A stretch of 55,130 bases of DNA from a virus (lineage: Duplodnaviria; Caudoviricetes). Positions within the stretch are counted from its first letter, which is position 1; the number at the start of each line of letters is the position of its first letter. Under the pieces are notes generated by a model. That model was not told the DNA's origin, ran no database searches, and saw only the letters and a list, made by a program, of their open reading frames with translations. Location of the stretch: the IMG/VR virus record IMGVR_UViG_3300005613_000080, positions 1-55,130 of that record; one strand, given 5' to 3'. Below, one piece after another: positions 40,174 through 49,331 of this stretch. Position numbers and translations under genes: made by a program.

Positions 40174-40466
40174 CAGTCGAGGTGGTCTTCTCCGTAGAGG
40201 GTTTCCTCAGCCGCCTCTTCGACAACAACCTCCTCGATGATCTCCTCGATCATGGGGAGTTCTTCAAGCTGCTCCTCGACAGGAGAACTACCATCTACCA
40301 TGCCGATGCAGCCGTCACGCCAGAGCTTGTCCAGGCGATGACGAGGCACGTCCCCTCGGGTGTCGAACGTACCACCGACCTCGTACCGCCGACCGTTGTA
40401 ACGGAAGGGGTAGAGGACAGCGAACGCCTGCACCTTGAGGGGTGCCCTGCGATCAGCAGCGGACAT
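40173..40466 (-). CDS. Small hypothetical protein after the MCP, acidic tail
   Basis: TGATG overlaps at both ends; PFRYNGRRY..G. Confidence 0.65.
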   Translation of the reverse strand: MSAADRRAPLKVQAFAVLYPFRYNGRRYEVGGTFDTRGDVPRHRLDKLWRDGCIGMVDGSSPVEEQLEELPMIEEIIEEVVVEEAAEETLYGEDHLD

Positions 40467-41452
40467 CAGGCAACCGCGTTGATGAGGATCGAACCCAGCT
40501 CGGGAGCGATGACTTTCTGGTCGTAGGCCGACTCGATCTCGATGCGACGAGAAGCCGTGTGGGGCATCTCGAAACGCTTGATGCGAGTACCGGCAGCCGA
40601 AGCACCAGAGAAGCCCTGCCACGCGAAGGTGTAGCCCGCCGAGGGGGTGTAGCGGCCCGGACGCTCCGGGACGTACAGCATCAGCAGGTTCTTGCCGTAC
40701 AGGAAGTCGAAGTCATCGGTAGCGCCCTCGACCGCCGCGTTGTAGATCGCGGACGGAACAAGGATGCGGTCCACCTCAAGCAGCTCGGCAAGGTTCTGCT
40801 GGAGAACCTTGGCCGGGCCACTGGTCTGACCACGGTTGAGGCGGTCAACGAGATCCGGGTGGTTCTTGAGCTGCTGCCACACACGCGGACCCATGACGAT
40901 GGTGTTCGGGGCGAAGCCCGTCAGCTCCATCATGTCCACACGCTTGCTCTCGATCAGGCCCAGCGGATCCGAGTTGGTGTAATCGCTGAACTGGGCGGTG
41001 CCCGAAAGCGTCTGCTCGCCCGTCCAGATGCTCGCACCAAAGAAGGTGGTCGCCCAGTTGCGGTCGCGGTTGATGCGAGCCGCCTGAGCGAGAAGCATGG
41101 TGGCCTCAAGGTCGAGATCCACCTCCTCGTCAGCGTTCTCCTCCGTCTGCTCGTCGATGTCCACAGCGAGGCTGTAAACGTCGGCGTAGTACGGAGTGGT
41201 CGAGGTGCTGTAGCCGATGGTGCTCGACTCAGCGCCCGGAGCACGCTTGTTCATCTCGTCCCGCTGGAACGAGCCGCGATCATAGGTCCGGTACAGGTCG
41301 GACTGCTTGTTGACGGGGATCACCGGGAACACGGAGTCCGCGATGAAGCCCTCTTCGGACATGACCGCCACGCTCATGTTGGTGAGCGTGCGATCAACGT
41401 GAACGGCGCTGGGAGTCGGCTGCGCCTTGGTAACCGGCTGGCTGAACTTCAT
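40466..41452 (-). CDS. Major capsid protein
   Basis: VDRTLTNMSV, FIADSVFP, PSAGYTF; strong GGAGG RBS. Confidence 0.9.
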   Translation of the reverse strand: MKFSQPVTKAQPTPSAVHVDRTLTNMSVAVMSEEGFIADSVFPVIPVNKQSDLYRTYDRGSFQRDEMNKRAPGAESSTIGYSTSTTPYYADVYSLAVDIDEQTEENADEEVDLDLEATMLLAQAARINRDRNWATTFFGASIWTGEQTLSGTAQFSDYTNSDPLGLIESKRVDMMELTGFAPNTIVMGPRVWQQLKNHPDLVDRLNRGQTSGPAKVLQQNLAELLEVDRILVPSAIYNAAVEGATDDFDFLYGKNLLMLYVPERPGRYTPSAGYTFAWQGFSGASAAGTRIKRFEMPHTASRRIEIESAYDQKVIAPELGSILINAVA

Positions 41453-41470: not shown

Positions 41471-41848
41471 TCAGGCGAGGATGTGCTCGCTCAGAAGCAG
41501 CACTTCGATGATCTCGCCAGCAGCGGAAGCCGCCTGGAGAGCAGTGCCTTGAACGTGATCGCCCGTGGCCGCCGTGATGGCACGACCCGAGGCGTCGGAC
41601 TGGACCTTGGCGTCCTGAGCCACCGCAGCACCAGCCACGATCTTGACGATCTGGCCGTCGCTACAAGCGACTTCCACGGCCTTGCCTTGGGCATCAGCCG
41701 GGGTGATCAGCACGCCCGCGCACGAGCCGCCAGCGGTGTCCTGTTGGACAACCTGACCGCTCGACAGTTTGACGAAACGGAACTGCGCCGAGGACAGGTC
41801 AGCACCCGCCTCGAACGTAAGGCACCGCTTTTTGTTCATAGAAGCCAT
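41471..41848 (-). CDS. Capsid cement/decoration protein (DUF2190-like)
   Basis: AGADLS..QFRFVK; VQSDASGRA; ALQAASAAGEII. Confidence 0.82.
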   Translation of the reverse strand: MASMNKKRCLTFEAGADLSSAQFRFVKLSSGQVVQQDTAGGSCAGVLITPADAQGKAVEVACSDGQIVKIVAGAAVAQDAKVQSDASGRAITAATGDHVQGTALQAASAAGEIIEVLLLSEHILA

Positions 41849-41868: not shown

Positions 41869-43500
41869 TCAGCGGGTCTGAGCGTAAAGGGAACGACCCT
41901 CAGCGGTGCTCAGAACCGCGAAGAGGGCTTTGTCACTGGACTCACCAGTCTCGGCAACGCGCTTGCTGACGAGTTCATCGAGCTTGGTTTCCGCGTCAAC
42001 AGCAGAGGCAGACTTGGCAGCCGTGCCCAGGCTCTTGAAGACGGCGCTTCCGCGCTCGTTGGCGGCCTTCAGGATCTCACCCACAGCGCCGCGAACCGTC
42101 TCGTCGGTGATGGTGTCCACAGCACGAAGCAGGGCCACCTTGGCAACATCATCGCCAGGAAGGTTCTCCAGCTCCGACTCGGCACGCTTGGCAAGCAGTT
42201 CGTCGGCGCGGGCGGCCTTCTCAACAGCAAGCTCACGAGTCGCCTCGTCGGCTTGCTTGGCAAGACGAATCACCAGCTCACCCGCACTTTTGCGGATCTC
42301 AGTGCCGTCGATGCAGGTGTAGGCGACCGGATCGGCCTCCTGCGCCTTCTCGACGAGACGCTGGCGCTCGTCATCGGACTTGGTGATAAAGGCATCGCGC
42401 TCCTCACCTTCAGCAAGGTTATTGGCGAACGCCTTTTGAGCGTCGGTCAGTTGACCATACGCCTTGGCGAGCTGCAACTCGGCCTGGAGGGCGTCAAGCT
42501 GCTGATCGACCGCCTGCTCGCTGACGGCATCGGTTTGTTTGGTCATGGTTTCTTCCTCAGTTCGACCTTTGGAACCGGCATCAGGACCGGCGGAATCAGA
42601 ATCAGACATTTGGGTCATGCTTACTTCGTGAGTATGTCCATCGGCCATGCCAATGGTAATACTCCCGTCTTCGTTCAATACCCACGGATGGTGATGACCC
42701 ATTTCGTCATCCGGGGCGAAGTCGTGAGTGCTCTGACCACCTTCCGCATCCAAATGGATGAGGTGAGAGTGACCATTCACAACAGAGAGGAGGTGGAATG
42801 CTCGCTTCTCTGTGCGCTCTGCTCGGAACTGCTGATTGGCAACCGCAGTCCTCTGTGCTTCGTCGGGGAACTCCTTACGGGCCTCTTCGTCAGCCATGAA
42901 GCGACTAACAAAGTCCGCCCGCGACTCACCCTCTTTGGGAGCCGGAAGGACCTTCATCGCATCCTCGCCCTTGGCAGCACGAGGATGCCCCTTGGGAAGC
43001 AGATCGTTGTCCGTGGTGTATTTCGAGTTCTTGGGAGAGCCCGTCTTGACCAGATGGAGGAAGGCGTTGACACGAGCCATCGCCCACTGGTTGCGCGACT
43101 GGGCGCGGGCGCTGGTCGAGTACGCACCAGCACCTCGGCGGTAGACCGCCTTTAGCATCCCGAGAGTGACCTTTCGATCGCTGCCCTCGTTGTGGCCGCT
43201 GACCTTGTTCTTGAGGGCCGTCTCGACAGAATCACTGATCGAGATACCTCCGCGAGAATCACTTGCAGAACCTTCGGGGTTGCGGTCGCTGCCACGACGA
43301 CCCGTGCCAGGAGGATCTTCGGCTTTGTAGTCGTAGCCCTTCTCCTCCTCGTCATCGTAGTCGTAACTTTTCTCCTCGTCCTCGTCCTCGTCGTCTGAGT
43401 AACGCTTGAGGATCGTCACTTTGGCATGAGCCTGAGCCGGGAAATCAACACCGCTGATCTCCTCCAACTCAAACTCCTCCATGATGCGCTGCTCAGTCAT
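41869..43500 (-). CDS. Scaffold polyprotein (protease C-terminal motif, inserted domains, coiled-coil scaffold)
   Basis: EEISGVDFPAQ..A.V...KR start; internal domains; helical C-terminus upstream of the cement and MCP genes. Confidence 0.75.
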   Translation of the reverse strand: MTEQRIMEEFELEEISGVDFPAQAHAKVTILKRYSDDEDEDEEKSYDYDDEEEKGYDYKAEDPPGTGRRGSDRNPEGSASDSRGGISISDSVETALKNKVSGHNEGSDRKVTLGMLKAVYRRGAGAYSTSARAQSRNQWAMARVNAFLHLVKTGSPKNSKYTTDNDLLPKGHPRAAKGEDAMKVLPAPKEGESRADFVSRFMADEEARKEFPDEAQRTAVANQQFRAERTEKRAFHLLSVVNGHSHLIHLDAEGGQSTHDFAPDDEMGHHHPWVLNEDGSITIGMADGHTHEVSMTQMSDSDSAGPDAGSKGRTEEETMTKQTDAVSEQAVDQQLDALQAELQLAKAYGQLTDAQKAFANNLAEGEERDAFITKSDDERQRLVEKAQEADPVAYTCIDGTEIRKSAGELVIRLAKQADEATRELAVEKAARADELLAKRAESELENLPGDDVAKVALLRAVDTITDETVRGAVGEILKAANERGSAVFKSLGTAAKSASAVDAETKLDELVSKRVAETGESSDKALFAVLSTAEGRSLYAQTR

Positions 43501-44378
43501 GCAGGAACGTCCTTGATTCGTTTGCCGCCAATGCTGAAACCCCGAAGCTCACCCGACTTGAACTTCTCAAGCATTTCGGCGTCCGGGGCCATGCCAATAA
43601 TCAGGCCCGTTCGGTCAGGATCCTGGATCCCCAGAGACTTGGCGATCTCTTCAGTGAACGGGAGCATGAAGACGACGGTTCCGCGATCACCGGAAACGTG
43701 CATCTCCCTGGCGACTCGTGCGCCTTTGGCAAAGTTGGTCGCGGCCTTCAACATTGACTGCTCCGGGATATGATCACCCTGGAGGTCAAAGTAAGGTTGG
43801 CCCATTTCCTTGCAGATGATAGCCCATCCAAAGACGAGCCCAAGCTCGTCGTGAACCTTGGCGACTTCGCAGTTGAGCTGAAATGAGTCCGTCATTCCAT
43901 CCGTAGTAGATACCACTATACCATCCTCAATCAAGTCTGTCCAATCTGATTCTTTATTAGCGGCATCCTTTGTAAAGAAGTCATCAGGATCTCCGGGAGC
44001 TTGGCGAACGTCTCGCGGACCTTCGTGACAGAACTTCAAAACCCCTTCGCGGCGAAGCACGCCATTCGCCCAGCGGCGACCAGCATCCCCACCCCACAGG
44101 AGCCAAGCAATCATGCCAGCTCCAGGCTCGCCCGACTCCGTGCGACTGTCCTTGTTACGCTCGTGACGCTCGAAGAAGGCCCGCATCCGGCGAATGGTCG
44201 CCAGTGACAGGCTCTTGCCGTTGGCAAGATCACGAGCCCGCGCCACGCCCGACCGGATGCCCTGACGGCCCGCTTCCTGGGTCGAGAGGCCGCCTCGACC
44301 GTACCTCTCGCGCATCTCCAGGCCACGCTTGGCGTTGCTCTGTACGCCCTTGGGGGGCTTGAACGACTTTTTGTCCAT
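43497..44378 (-). CDS. XkdF-like prohead serine protease with extra N-terminal domain
   Basis: LVFGWA, DLQGD, EMH, KSGELRGFSIGG. Confidence 0.82.
   Translation of the reverse strand: MDKKSFKPPKGVQSNAKRGLEMRERYGRGGLSTQEAGRQGIRSGVARARDLANGKSLSLATIRRMRAFFERHERNKDSRTESGEPGAGMIAWLLWGGDAGRRWANGVLRREGVLKFCHEGPRDVRQAPGDPDDFFTKDAANKESDWTDLIEDGIVVSTTDGMTDSFQLNCEVAKVHDELGLVFGWAIICKEMGQPYFDLQGDHIPEQSMLKAATNFAKGARVAREMHVSGDRGTVVFMLPFTEEIAKSLGIQDPDRTGLIIGMAPDAEMLEKFKSGELRGFSIGGKRIKDVPA
43915..43943 (-). promoter_or_regulatory. Sigma70-like promoter internal to the protease ORF
   Basis: TGGACA-17 bp-TATAGT with extended TG and an A-rich upstream tract; in-frame ATG at 43895. Confidence 0.6.
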
Positions 44379-46289: not shown

Positions 46290-46665
46290 TGTCGATGTTG
46301 GGTTCAATGGTCAGCGTTCCAACAGCAAACACCTCGCTGTTAGCACTGGCGTCCACACCTTCAAGTTCGATGTAGTAGGTGCCAGGGGTGAGGCTCGTGG
46401 TGTCGGCTTCCAAGAGCGTCACATCAACAACCCCACTGGCAGGCGTGATCTTGACCACTTGCGTCGGATCGTCCGTGGTGTTCAGGTCGATGACGGCACC
46501 CGACTCAATGGGATTGCCCGACGCATCCGTTCGCGTAGCCGCCCAGCGGATCGTATACGTTGTGATGTCCAACGCCGCATTTGCGTTGTCTTCGTCGGTG
46601 ACGGTGTAGCGCAGAACCTTGCGGTTGCCTCGGTACACAGTCGCGTTTTGGTCTGTCTTCGCCAT
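46282..46665 (-). CDS. BppU N-terminal-like Ig-fold structural protein
   Basis: RG....L..TV, LDIT, V.L...DT..L.PGTYY.E. Confidence 0.6.
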   Translation of the reverse strand: MAKTDQNATVYRGNRKVLRYTVTDEDNANAALDITTYTIRWAATRTDASGNPIESGAVIDLNTTDDPTQVVKITPASGVVDVTLLEADTTSLTPGTYYIELEGVDASANSEVFAVGTLTIEPNIDNA

Positions 46666-49331
46666 TAGGCTTTGGTGCCTCCGAGGTCGATAATCCCTTC
46701 CGAACTGGCGCTAAGTCCTACACTCATATCAGAGCTGGCCGATAGCGCAATCAGTGTGTCTTTTGAGGCGGCAAGTTCCGCGAGCGTTTTCTTCGTCGCC
46801 ACTAGATCCGTCCTGGTGTTTTTGGAGCCAAAAAGATCCGTGTCCGCGCCAAGAGGGAGGGAATCAAACGACAGCTCCGCGCTAACAGTAGCCGATCCAA
46901 GAACCAGCGCCGACAGATCGCCCGTCGCAACCAGGGTGGTCGTTCCGACAACGGCAAGGCCGTAGACCTGCCCCCCGATGATCGCGATCCCAGCAAGGTC
47001 CGCAGCAGGGACAGTCGCCCCAGCCTGAATGGTGTCCGCCAGCGCCCCAACGCCCACGAGCGAGGCTGCTGCCGACGAAAGCCCAGAGGCCGTTCCCGAG
47101 ATGAGAGCAGTAGCCGCAAACGACGCGGTAACCGCAGCGGAGCCCTGAATGGTTCCAGAGAGGGAGCCCGAACCCGTGAGCGAACCACTGACAGATGCCG
47201 CGCCCGTTGCGGAGCCACTTCGCGAAACAATCGCAACAAGCTCCGCATCCGGGACCACCGCCCCAGCTCGGACCCGATCCACCAGCGCCCCGATTCCGGT
47301 GAGCGCACCGGAGATCGTGGAAGCCCCGGCAATCGTCCCTGAGAGCGAAACTCCTGCCGCGAAGCTGCCTGAGACGGTCGCAACACCCTGGATAAGCCCA
47401 GAGAGCGCCCCCAGGCCGCTGAGAGCGCCCGTAGCCGTGGATGAGCCAAGGGATTGAGCAGAGCCCGAAGCCGTCGCCAGGAGAGCGCCAAGGACCGTAG
47501 CAGAACCCTGAGAGGATCCGACGAGGGTGCCCGTCCCGATCAGCGCCCCGCTCGCGGTCGCCTCCCCGGCGATGGTCGAAGCAAGGATGCCCGCCCCGAT
47601 CAGGGTGCCGCTCGCGGAACCGATACCCTGCACTGTCGAGGAGAGCGCCCCATCCCCAACAATGACCGCCGTGGCCGTTGCCACCCCCGTCAGGGTGCCC
47701 GCAATCGGCTTGATCAAGCCGATGGGGGTGGCATTGACCATCGTTCCGGCAGGCAGCACGCTCGATGCCGTCAGGGTCGCCGAGATCGCCGCGAAGCCGA
47801 TCAGCTCCGATTTGCCGATGATCGCTTCGGCCTGGACAGTTCCAGCGAGCGCCCCGATCGGAGACATCGAAGCCGCCGGAACAGTGGCCGCGCCCTGGAT
47901 CGTTCCGCTGATAGATCCAGGCCGCAATAGCGACGCCACCTCTATCAGATAGAGCGCCGTGTCTCCAGCAGCCCAGGCCGTCGAGGAGTCGGCGGTGGTG
48001 TTCATCGCAAGACCACCCACCTCGAAGTAGGTCCCCGAGAAGTCAAGGACCCCGGCAGCCGATGCTCCAGCAGTCCATGTTCCCGTGGTGGACTGATCTC
48101 CACGGTTCTGGTTGTCCGCCAAACCGTAGGCAACGACTGTAGAGCCGTCGAACCGATACAAGGCGCGAGGACGCTTCCGAGTCGCGTCTACCCCTGTCCG
48201 TACCTGAAGGAAGGTCGTCGCTGCGAAGATCCGCCCAGAGGATGCAGGGGTTACGCGAGACGGGTTCGTTACCGTCGAGTGCGTCCACGCCGAGTCGATC
48301 CAGTCCTGCGTGTCGAACTCGATGGGATCAAAGGTCGCGGAGTTGTGGTCATGGTCCGCGCTTTGTCGCAGCTTGGCGGTATTCGTCCAGCTTCCAAGTT
48401 CGACGATAGTGATGGCCGCCGAGGCGACATCCAGGGTAGCGGTGCCCTCTTGGTCGCAAGCCGCCTCGACCTTGAGCACGCGACTGGAGGCCGACGCAAA
48501 GACAATCGCGATGCCCGACGCAATCCCGTCTTGGACGCCGTTCGTTCCTCGGCAATAAGCGGTGGAGTACGACCCCGGAACCACCGCCCCGTTCCACGAC
48601 AGACGGGCCATGCCGTTGACCCGAACGCTCGAACTCGTGTTGTTGAACTTGACCTGATAGCAGACGAGATACCGCTTTCGGTCGATCAGCGTGATCTCGG
48701 CGGGGTTGACCGTCGTGGAGTGCGAGTACCCGGTCGCCCCGTTGTCAAGCTCGTCCTGGATGCGGAACTGAACGTCCTGCCACTCGAAGGAAGCGCCCGT
48801 TACCGGAGGACTCTCACCGCTCGCATGAGTCAGGCTTTGCGTCGTGGTGTCCCTGAGACGACAGTAGTTGAGATCGTCGTCAAGGCGAATCAGGGACAGA
48901 CCCGATTCGTTCGCTACCTGCGTGCAGGTTGCGCTGCCGGTGTTTGAGTCCGTTCGGGCCTTCTCAATCGACACCTCATCCGTCGCCGATAGATCCAGAA
49001 TCGTGCCCGCGCATTGGGCACTTTCAAAGTCCTGTGTGCGACGGATGTAGCCGGTGCTCCATCCATAGGGCTCGGTCGCCACGTTGTTGACTGCGACACG
49101 CGCAGTCAGCTCAGAGCGGTTGGACCCCGTACCTACATACCCGAGGTTGTAGACAACGAGGTAATGCCCAGCCTCGTTGACCTCGATGGCCTCAGTCGGA
49201 CTGGCGACCCGGTTGAAGGTCGCCGTGTCCTCGTGAACCGTCGTGTCGAAGGTGAACGGCGTGTAGGTCGCTGAGTTGTCGGTGTCCCCAGCAGTCGCCT
49301 CACGGACGATGATTGAGTCGCCTGCTGCCAC
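46665..49331 (-). CDS. Fibre protein with N-terminal beta-sandwich repeats and Gly/Ala/Ser-rich stalk
   Basis: Three repeats beginning xFDT/FRI-x-D..S/NP..I; long G-x-L-x-G-x-I-x-G repeat region. Confidence 0.65.
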   Translation of the reverse strand: MAAGDSIIVREATAGDTDNSATYTPFTFDTTVHEDTATFNRVASPTEAIEVNEAGHYLVVYNLGYVGTGSNRSELTARVAVNNVATEPYGWSTGYIRRTQDFESAQCAGTILDLSATDEVSIEKARTDSNTGSATCTQVANESGLSLIRLDDDLNYCRLRDTTTQSLTHASGESPPVTGASFEWQDVQFRIQDELDNGATGYSHSTTVNPAEITLIDRKRYLVCYQVKFNNTSSSVRVNGMARLSWNGAVVPGSYSTAYCRGTNGVQDGIASGIAIVFASASSRVLKVEAACDQEGTATLDVASAAITIVELGSWTNTAKLRQSADHDHNSATFDPIEFDTQDWIDSAWTHSTVTNPSRVTPASSGRIFAATTFLQVRTGVDATRKRPRALYRFDGSTVVAYGLADNQNRGDQSTTGTWTAGASAAGVLDFSGTYFEVGGLAMNTTADSSTAWAAGDTALYLIEVASLLRPGSISGTIQGAATVPAASMSPIGALAGTVQAEAIIGKSELIGFAAISATLTASSVLPAGTMVNATPIGLIKPIAGTLTGVATATAVIVGDGALSSTVQGIGSASGTLIGAGILASTIAGEATASGALIGTGTLVGSSQGSATVLGALLATASGSAQSLGSSTATGALSGLGALSGLIQGVATVSGSFAAGVSLSGTIAGASTISGALTGIGALVDRVRAGAVVPDAELVAIVSRSGSATGAASVSGSLTGSGSLSGTIQGSAAVTASFAATALISGTASGLSSAAASLVGVGALADTIQAGATVPAADLAGIAIIGGQVYGLAVVGTTTLVATGDLSALVLGSATVSAELSFDSLPLGADTDLFGSKNTRTDLVATKKTLAELAASKDTLIALSASSDMSVGLSASSEGIIDLGGTKA

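Follow-up and report, generated by a model that had tools for sequence, protein, structure and literature searches.

What kind of head protein joins a protease-like motif, several small modules and a scaffold in a single chain? The question is raised by the window analyzed here, the whole 55,130-base stretch of the single linear virus record IMGVR_UViG_3300005613_000080, which derives from an uncultured phage and has an estimated completeness of 80%. Among the head genes on its minus strand is a 543-residue open reading frame (ORF; Table 1) that an earlier note, made from the letters of the sequence, described as a polyprotein in which an acidic spacer and three modules separate a protease-like N-terminal motif from a coiled-coil scaffold, with Lys residues at the module borders serving as cleavage sites. 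The ORF is present both in the ORF list and in translation, and its modules lie where that note had placed them. Taken as a whole, the explanation that we favor, with moderate confidence, is that the ORF encodes a long form of the head scaffold, which would carry a strand of the head protease and a set of inserted modules into the procapsid. Two of these modules, DUF5824 and a small helical module, probably travel into the immature capsid in this way.

The reading of the ORF as the long form of a head scaffold is suggested by gene order, by relatives that are fused to proteases and by composition. No library match to the 543-residue protein names a scaffold function, and residues 236-542 are covered by phrog_24785 (E 3.8e-58, profile positions 62-368 of 370), an unnamed family without an assigned function. 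A search with the single protein retrieves only close relatives and loci containing DUF5824; three relatives are full-length, at 96, 87 and 86% identity. A search of 1.84 billion representatives with the segment that bears its GHxH motifs finds 342 clusters at E<=0.001. Most of the proteins in this family have 340-450 residues, with the GHxH domain at positions 40-120; those of about 500 residues have it at positions 170-270, and 13 of 14 of them are fused to the protease domain PF14550 (E<=0.001). As aligned for the window protein and 15 relatives, the family core opens with an N-terminal strand, which a short linker joins to the GHxH domain; a variable linker then leads to a long C-terminal part that is helical.

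The GHxH domain forms a small all-beta unit in the AlphaFold2 (AF2) model, with a predicted local distance difference test (pLDDT) score of 84.2. All 72 aligned relatives keep its six His residues (H244, H246, H269, H271, H289 and H291), a pattern that points to metal binding. The earlier note had recognized this His-rich module and counted it among the stacked cargo domains; the module exists, but its occurrence in 342 clusters marks it as part of the conserved scaffold core. Foldseek finds no structure in the PDB that resembles the six-His model at E<=0.001 (best E 0.84), and a wide search with VIA reaches at best Z 3.9 (AvrPib), with PAAR-repeat proteins at Z 3.0-3.3, level with unrelated rows. 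A lead to the YmaF family (PF12788) carries an Atlas feature score of 0.79; three of the 72 family members match that profile at E values of at least 0.03, and the window segment does not. Depletion of Lys in the six-His domain, considered as a sign of protease resistance, was rejected because Arg is depleted too. Two short proteins (P0172, 125 residues, and P0175, 123 residues) contain only the protease strand and the six-His domain and end about 15 residues past the third GHxH; they hint that in some phages the long form may be split again at a conserved Met downstream of this domain, or they may be truncated at contig ends.

At the N-terminus of the ORF, residues 4-34 match positions 128-158 of the 165 in Peptidase_S78 (E 0.0062, 17.1 bits, under the cut-off of 21), and this fragment corresponds to the protease-like motif of the earlier note. 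S78 also matches the N-termini of two unfused scaffold proteins among 42 others scanned at E<=0.1, and within a strand alignment of 42 rows V18 and K32 are invariant. Among 14 aligned forms in which protease and scaffold are fused, the strand follows the protease core in six and precedes it in eight (see also P0203); in the window phage and five cultured relatives it opens the next gene. With these three alternative positions, the strand resembles a part of the protease fold that can be detached. In part, then, residues 1-33 can be identified as the last strand of a prohead-protease fold. The proposed link between the multi-module protein and the head protease thus stands, but the protease itself is the product of the upstream gene, and the ORF holds only its last strand. 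In that 293-residue upstream protein, PF14550 matches residues 171-286 with 26.9 bits (cut-off 24), and H227 and S282 are near-invariant in 40 sequences. Presumably, the strand borne by the scaffold docks onto the protease core encoded by the overlapping upstream gene, which would tether the protease, together with an N-terminal domain of its own (module A), to the scaffold.

Between the strand and the six-His domain there is a slot of variable length. In the window protein the slot holds an insert of about 195 residues, made up of an acidic spacer, DUF5824 and a small three-helix module. The insert is present in only four of 16 aligned family members, namely the window protein and the relatives at 96, 87 and 86% identity; in the other 12, which have no spacer either, the strand passes directly to the GHxH domain. 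Strand and GHxH domain are separated by a median of 36 residues in relatives, compared with about 220 in the window protein; among 114 representatives the distance is at most 35 residues in 55, 36-60 in 32, 61-100 in 16 and more than 100 in 11. The spacer itself varies, with P0009 having one EEK(S/G)YDY unit fewer. In other family members the slot holds, among other things, the protease, repeats of a GGQF-type motif (P0131) or an 'ALPDGSFPI' module (P0052, P0045). The 523-residue scaffold of Ruegeria phage Tedan (L017, 1544-3115) also has other inserts at this position, including a 'PGESMEAYLRR' stretch that resembles the helical module by eye. In the same Tedan protein, an 'ARALG' stretch after the six-His domain resembles, again by eye, the ALPDGSFPI module. 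The profile of GC content along the ORF gives no clear sign of recent acquisition, the insert (0.56-0.63) lying inside the local range. In this lineage, the variable slot between strand and six-His domain is filled by the spacer, DUF5824 and the helical module.

The first folded occupant of the slot had been delineated as a basic domain at 43310-42965. It corresponds to residues 64-178, has an isoelectric point (pI) of 10.6 and matches the Pfam family DUF5824 (PF19141). Set against a cut-off of 25 bits, this match scores 23.7 for the whole ORF, 25.9 for residues 55-240 and 26, over the cut-off, in a six-frame search. The window protein has the residues of all 31 columns that are invariant among 62 aligned DUF5824 sequences; in place of the common SHRP motif it has SARA, as do P0024 and P0025. 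The AF2 model of residues 55-240 has a mean pLDDT of 66.8, and the DUF5824 core within it comprises helices at residues 90-106, 113-125 and 136-153 with pLDDT 84-94. For the model of DUF5824 with the helical module, Foldseek finds nothing in the PDB at E<=0.001 (best E 1.9). A VIA search with the DUF5824 model returns sigma-factor domain 2 in many of its top 50 rows, with a best Z of 5.3 (root-mean-square deviation 3.1, 70 residues aligned), which is below the level that the tool calls meaningful for helical folds, and the likeness to sigma factors is kept only as a lead. Sequence-profile searches against the PDB give nothing significant for DUF5824 or the six-His domain; matches to the designed propellers 'Cake' and 'SAKe' were dismissed as spurious sums of repeat matches without a significant single stretch.

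DUF5824 is found in a wide variety of head proteins. A protein search returns 1481 matches, and among the best 120, which were described, those beyond the scaffold relatives are mostly DUF5824 at 45-73% identity in other architectures. In 62 DUF5824 proteins the accompanying domains are XkdF (five), MuF (four), portal (two) and S78 (one), along with the small domains DUF3721 (four), EF-hand_5 (three), Dockerin (one) and DUF3140 (one); the PHROG categories of DUF5824 proteins are portal, head morphogenesis, minor head, head maturation protease and major head. An 874-residue 'major capsid protein' of Roseobacter phage CRP-701 runs from module A through DUF5824 and an acidic stretch to an S78 protease and a capsid domain, and DUF5824 also lies within large head-region proteins of Salinibacter phages and an actinophage. 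P0024 and P0025 unite module A, DUF5824 and an XkdF protease in one chain, a set that the window divides between two genes. Stand-alone forms of 101-115 residues occur in viral clusters. The flanks of 92 distinct copies show a near-universal basic tail, HP-[RK]-x-x-K, at which five proteins end.

The second occupant, the PAPKEGESRADFVSRFM stretch that had been claimed as a short module, proves to be a separate module that spans residues 185-229. It aligns with the N-terminus of P0046 in a pairwise comparison (E 3e-8), and AF2 models it as three short helices (pLDDT 75-82). A word-index search with this module alone yields only two close relatives, and its profile is present in 84 of 393 fetched proteins. 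DUF5824 accompanies it in 69 of the 84, where the helical copy precedes DUF5824 in 64 cases and follows it in 10; a further 12 are scaffold relatives without DUF5824, in which the module occupies the slot before GHxH in 11 and follows GHxH in one. Both of the usual Cys residues are kept in 64 of 89 copies, and the window copy has lost both. Thus, the suggestion that homologous modules would occur as mobile inserts in the head genes of unrelated phages holds for DUF5824 and for the helical module. The accompanying suggestion that such inserts are always bounded by Lys sites does not, as a Lys followed by a small residue is seen by eye at only about one quarter of the N-terminal flanks of DUF5824.

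A Lys-centered pattern is nevertheless a property of the scaffold, as the earlier note had proposed. In the window protein, 26 of 35 Lys residues precede Ala, Gly, Ser, Val or Arg, where 14 are expected (z score 4.4, reached by none of 5000 shuffles); the same test on the fifteen other window genes that contain Lys gives z of -1.3 to 1.6. With a hydrophobic residue added two positions before the Lys, the pattern is observed 14 times against 3.2 expected (z 6.6), and its Arg version has z -0.4. Across 131 family representatives, hydrophobic-x-Lys before a small residue occurs 1595 times against 414 expected (3.9-fold), with z above 2 in 98% of the proteins. Around the 4341 Lys residues in this set, the position two before is enriched 2- to 2.9-fold for Phe, Leu, Ile, Met, Tyr and Val, and the residue after is biased toward Arg (2.5-fold), Ser (1.8-fold) and Ala (1.6-fold). 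When Arg or Glu takes the place of Lys as a control, the ratios are 0.97 and 0.73. An excess remains in columns where Lys is rare, at 2.2-fold compared with 1.3-fold for Arg. The Lys-centered motif is therefore enriched in the scaffold family, both strongly and specifically.

A complementary pattern exists in a neighboring head protein. MuF is a minor head protein that is expected to remain in the head, and the 320-residue MuF of the window contains 0 Lys and 41 Arg. Across the MuF proteins of this phage group the Lys counts are 0, 0, 2, 6 and 9 (Tedan 0, KPP23 2, R6L 6, RDJL Phi 1 9) against 39-48 Arg, and Lys makes up 3.5% of the other window ORFs. This near-absence of Lys fits avoidance of a Lys-specific head protease, and on the evidence of these sequences a Lys-cutting protease, a scaffold built for shredding and the avoidance of Lys by a head protein that stays in place form a coherent picture. 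The PVTK-AQP leader of the capsid protein, which had been read as a further site, lacks a Lys counterpart in five of five related phages, whose capsid proteins have short N-termini. An HK97-style leader or delta domain on this protein was likewise rejected, since the PHROG major-head match begins at capsid residue 13 and the N-terminal Lys is not conserved.

The distribution of the motif suggests how the long form may be processed. The protease would cut after Lys in hydrophobic-x-Lys followed by Arg, Ser or Ala; 11 of the 16 hydrophobic-x-Lys sites in the window scaffold are within residues 319-543. A first cut at the invariant ILK32-R would free the protease, and subsequent cuts at 11 sites in residues 322-543 would shred the scaffold part. 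Few exposed sites are present in residues 33 to about 321, which would remain inside the head as one internal protein. Cleavage by the family motif would thus free the insert within a single piece of about 290 residues, and not as the separate small domains envisaged at first. More speculatively, the residual piece could stay with the DNA and perhaps enter the host alongside it.

The C-terminal 225 residues may also be made alone, from an in-frame start at M319, much like lambda Nu3. This column is Met in 62 of 72 rows and lies within an otherwise unconserved linker after the six-His domain, and the window has GAGGAA (42553-42558) before the ATG (42544-42546), which follows 8 bases on. A Shine-Dalgarno (SD)-like 4-mer stands upstream of the equivalent Met in six of six phages examined; in RDJL Phi 1, where the Met is M146 of gp72, the sequence reads AAGGAGGCAATC-ATG. 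If so, the long form would be a minor co-assembling species that brings the protease and the inserts into the procapsid.

Several observations weigh against this overall picture. The AF2 model of DUF5824 is confident only in the helical core, with the GS..N..GSAS and DNDLLP segments at pLDDT below 50-60, and no function could be assigned to any module by Foldseek, VIA or PDB sequence profiles. The docking of the strand onto the core is a prediction from sequence. With regard to the internal start, the SD-like GAGGAA is only moderate, and the 4-mer test also flags three of nine other internal Met codons of the window ORF and comparable shares in other phages. The excess of the Lys motif is strongest in conserved columns (10.4-fold), so part of the motif count is inherited and not independent. 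Of the six module borders proposed earlier, ILK-R at K32 fits the family motif and is invariant (42 of 42), but the other five (EEK-S, EEK-G, DYK-A, AMK-V and TEK-R) lack a hydrophobic residue two before the Lys. Finally, DUF5824 is itself Lys-rich (9 of 115 residues) and has motif-like sites at K117, K152 and K170, so the module might be cut too.

This last point bears on the alternative that deserves the most weight, although we consider it somewhat unlikely: the inserts could be assembly accessories that act in the procapsid only and are then degraded and lost with the scaffold, perhaps as counter-ions, as DNA or portal contacts or as protease regulators. The basic DUF5824 does follow an acidic spacer, its abundance of Lys contrasts with the avoidance of Lys by MuF, and the modules are always joined to assembly proteins. 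On the other hand, with 12 of the 16 aligned family members assembling without the insert, it is evidently dispensable for assembly. In addition, head architectures and protease types differ widely among DUF5824 proteins, yet the same 31 columns stay invariant, and such constancy fits a target outside any one assembly system.

Rather unlikely, too, is that the Lys motif reflects helix packing or the capsid-binding chemistry of the scaffold instead of protease sites. Most of the motif sites are in the helical C-terminal part, as this alternative would have it, and the tape-measure protein, which is likewise helical, has an excess of hydrophobic-x-Lys that is weaker (z 3.0). Packing does not readily explain, however, why Arg at the same position shows no enrichment and Glu is depleted, why the next residue is biased to Arg, Ser or Ala, or why the MuF proteins of the group are nearly free of Lys; cleavage by a Lys-specific protease remains the preferred interpretation of the motif.

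A broader reading of the module distribution can be entertained, though we hold it to be doubtful. XkdF-type head modules might possess a general 'cargo slot', in which any small domain inserted between the strand that docks the protease and the core of the scaffold would be borne into the procapsid and released by cuts after hydrophobic-x-Lys. DUF5824, with its 31 invariant positions and a core that bears a weak likeness to sigma-factor domain 2, would be the most widespread occupant of this slot and, as a conserved internal protein that exits the head with the DNA, could act on a conserved target in the host, for example RNA polymerase or the defenses against incoming DNA.

It is improbable, by comparison, that DUF5824 serves as a tag, for capsid targeting or DNA binding, through which other domains reach the head, and is not itself the payload. 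The stand-alone forms could be taken this way, as could P0018 and P0020, in which two DUF5824 copies are paired with other domains and with no recognized head domain. In this ORF and in most fusions, however, the partner (scaffold, protease, MuF or portal) already enters the procapsid by itself, and a tag would be redundant. The two metagenome proteins P0018 and P0020 each combine their DUF5824 copies with a Cys-rich module; P0020 adds a ferritin/Dps domain (Pfam), P0018 adds a ParB-like 'IIDGHHR' motif seen by eye, and both resemble pieces of larger head polyproteins.

The stop codon of the protease gene overlaps the start of the scaffold gene as ATGA, a 4-base overlap that suggests coupled translation. 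Protease and scaffold are likewise two genes in six of six phages (the window phage, RDJL Phi 1, S0112, KPP23, Tedan and R6L), at whose junctions the frame offsets are 2, 1, 1, 2, 0 and 1 and the gaps or overlaps range from -11 to +5. These differing offsets indicate that there is no conserved frameshift, and a programmed frameshift at the junction was ruled out on this basis, with no slippery heptamer visible at the window junction. That the two are really one gene, split by a sequencing error or a programmed frameshift and yielding an ordinary fused XkdF protease-scaffold, is very improbable: such fusions are common among relatives and the two ORFs do share 4 bases, but an identical 293-residue protein is recorded on three contigs, relatives at 86-89% identity stop at the same place, and the two-gene layout recurs in all six phages with offsets and gaps that differ.

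The upstream gene has features of its own. Its XkdF protease domain (43521-43868, minus strand) is matched at E 2.3e-23 by phrog_1530, a family labelled 'DNA methyltransferase'; the label probably stems from fused proteins in that family and would mislead automatic annotation. Ahead of this domain, module A (44049-44369, minus strand) displays the motif RGL..R..GRGG ... AWLLWGGDAG..W. Module A is as promiscuous as DUF5824, occurring also with 2'-5' RNA ligase, ChaB, PF18905 and PF23474 domains, and it forms the N-terminus of the CRP-701 protease-capsid fusion.

The genes surrounding the ORF place it in a recognizable setting. The minus strand of the window encodes terminase, portal, tape-measure and tail proteins, as well as DNA polymerase, primase, helicase and ribonucleotide reductase, and its head genes follow the order head-tail adaptor, head closure, MuF, XkdF-type protease, the 543-residue ORF, cement or decoration protein and E-type capsid protein (Table 1). 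In phage lambda the corresponding order is C (protease) with the nested Nu3 (scaffold), then D and E, and the head block of the window is lambda-like. An 888-residue ORF (46665-49331, minus strand), located between a portal-side head protein and the adaptor genes, matches no PHROG family; its C-terminal half consists of repeats rich in Ala, Gly, Ser and Thr, of the type G..A.V(S/T)G.

Table 1. Coordinates of the head genes, and of the segments of the 543-residue ORF, in the window.
Feature	Position	Strand	Basis or remarks
MuF head-morphogenesis gene, 320 residues	44378..45340	-	PF04233, phrog_3517
293-residue gene: module A (residues 4-110) and XkdF-type protease core (residues 171-286)	43497..44378	-	PF14550 E 5.2e-6; phrog_2859, phrog_1530
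543-residue ORF, probable long form of head scaffold	41869..43500	-	ORF list, translation; phrog_24785
Residues 1-33: basic stretch and 'EISGVDFPAQ' strand, ending at invariant K32-R33	43402..43500	-	Pfam Peptidase_S78
Residues 34-62: acidic spacer, duplicated EEK(S/G)YDY unit	43315..43401	-	pI 4.05; 17 D/E per 29 residues
Residues 63-178: DUF5824 module, conserved N-terminal GS..N..GSAS peptide, C-terminal DNDLLPKGHP...K	42967..43314	-	PF19141
Residues 185-229: three-helix module (P-x-x-x-GES-x-x-DF-x-x-R-[C/F]-M ... QR-x-AV-[C/A])	42814..42948	-	pairwise comparison and profile
Residues 233-300: six-His 'GHxH x3' all-beta domain	42601..42804	-	alignment, AF2
Candidate internal start: GAGGAA, then ATG of M319	42544..42558	-	sequence
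Residues 319-543: probable scaffold proper, possible nested product; Ala/Glu/Lys-rich	41869..42546	-	phrog_24785, alignment, site list
Cement/decoration protein gene	41471..41848	-	PF09956 E 1.7e-10
Major capsid protein, lambda E-like	40466..41452	-	phrog_1005 E 7e-84; PF03864 weak

These results place three orphan and very widespread modules (DUF5824, the Cys-pair helical module and module A) in a functional context for the first time, inside the head and probably packaged, and they define a six-His scaffold domain that is conserved and occurs in more than 300 protein clusters. They also make several ideas testable: that a protease is completed or tethered by a strand borne on the scaffold; that a natural insertion slot loads extra proteins into capsids, which would be useful for loading cargo into engineered phages or capsids; that the unstudied XkdF protease family follows a Lys-specific cut-site code; and that head proteins that need to survive the protease avoid Lys. 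The literature searched contains no mention of DUF5824 and nothing on XkdF with scaffold and protease in phage, and among the XkdF papers listed none takes up protease specificity in its title or the opening of its abstract. PMC12991175, considered as a source on Lys specificity, was set aside, as the parts of it consulted deal with T4 gp21 and the cyclic-oligonucleotide-based antiphage signaling system (CBASS) and have no bearing on the question. As far as these searches show, DUF5824 itself, the scaffold slot, the six-His domain and the Lys motif of the XkdF family are apparently not in print. Cargo on head-assembly proteins in general is already known, as are nested protease-scaffold genes and cleavage after Lys in HK97.

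Of the known systems, the nested protease-scaffold genes of lambda (C/Nu3) and of herpesviruses (UL26/UL26.5) offer a close parallel. The order of protease, scaffold, decoration and E-type capsid protein is shared, a shorter scaffold probably arises from an in-frame internal start, and the protease is tied to the scaffold and, as predicted here, releases itself by cutting. In the window, however, the catalytic core is encoded by a separate upstream gene and the scaffold holds only the last strand, and the long form adds optional inserted modules and the six-His domain. In HK97, the gp4 protease acts on the delta domain of gp5, which is cut after Lys103. The window system resembles it in the protease fold family, as indicated by the S78 match of the strand, and in a Lys-centered candidate site, but its capsid protein has no delta domain or conserved N-terminal Lys site and its scaffold is a separate protein.

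In T4, the internal proteins IPI-III and Alt are small and partly basic; they enter the prohead, where the head protease trims them, and are retained for injection. This cargo is encoded by separate genes and marked by a short N-terminal tag that is cut after Glu, unlike the modules described here, which reside within the scaffold and protease genes. T4 gp21 and the capsid-targeting sequences of IPI-III and Alt are mentioned in PMC5512222, in the portion of the article consulted. The same portion treats polyvalent proteins and effectors fused to MuF or portal, in which cargo is carried on head-assembly proteins (Iyer et al., 2017; PMC5512222). As in the window, several unrelated small domains are present on each head-associated polypeptide and are shuffled among MuF, portal and protease fusions; the word 'scaffold' is absent from the main text of that article, and none of the effector domains named in the consulted portion was found in the window protein with Pfam, PHROGs or fold searches.

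The nearest counterparts are within the family itself. Single-chain XkdF protease-scaffolds (PF14550; P0161, P0183) contain the same protease core, strand, six-His domain and scaffold, which in the window are divided between two genes that are probably coupled in translation and are accompanied by about 195 extra residues in the slot. RDJL Phi 1 (Xiamenvirus; gp71/gp72), S0112, KPP23, Tedan and R6L share the order of head genes and the split between protease and scaffold, and RDJL Phi 1 gp72 is 37.5% identical to the window scaffold across residues 237-542. RDJL Phi 1, S0112, KPP23 and R6L differ from the window in having no DUF5824, acidic spacer or module A, whereas Tedan fills the same slot with other inserts, one of which bears a resemblance, by eye, to the helical module.

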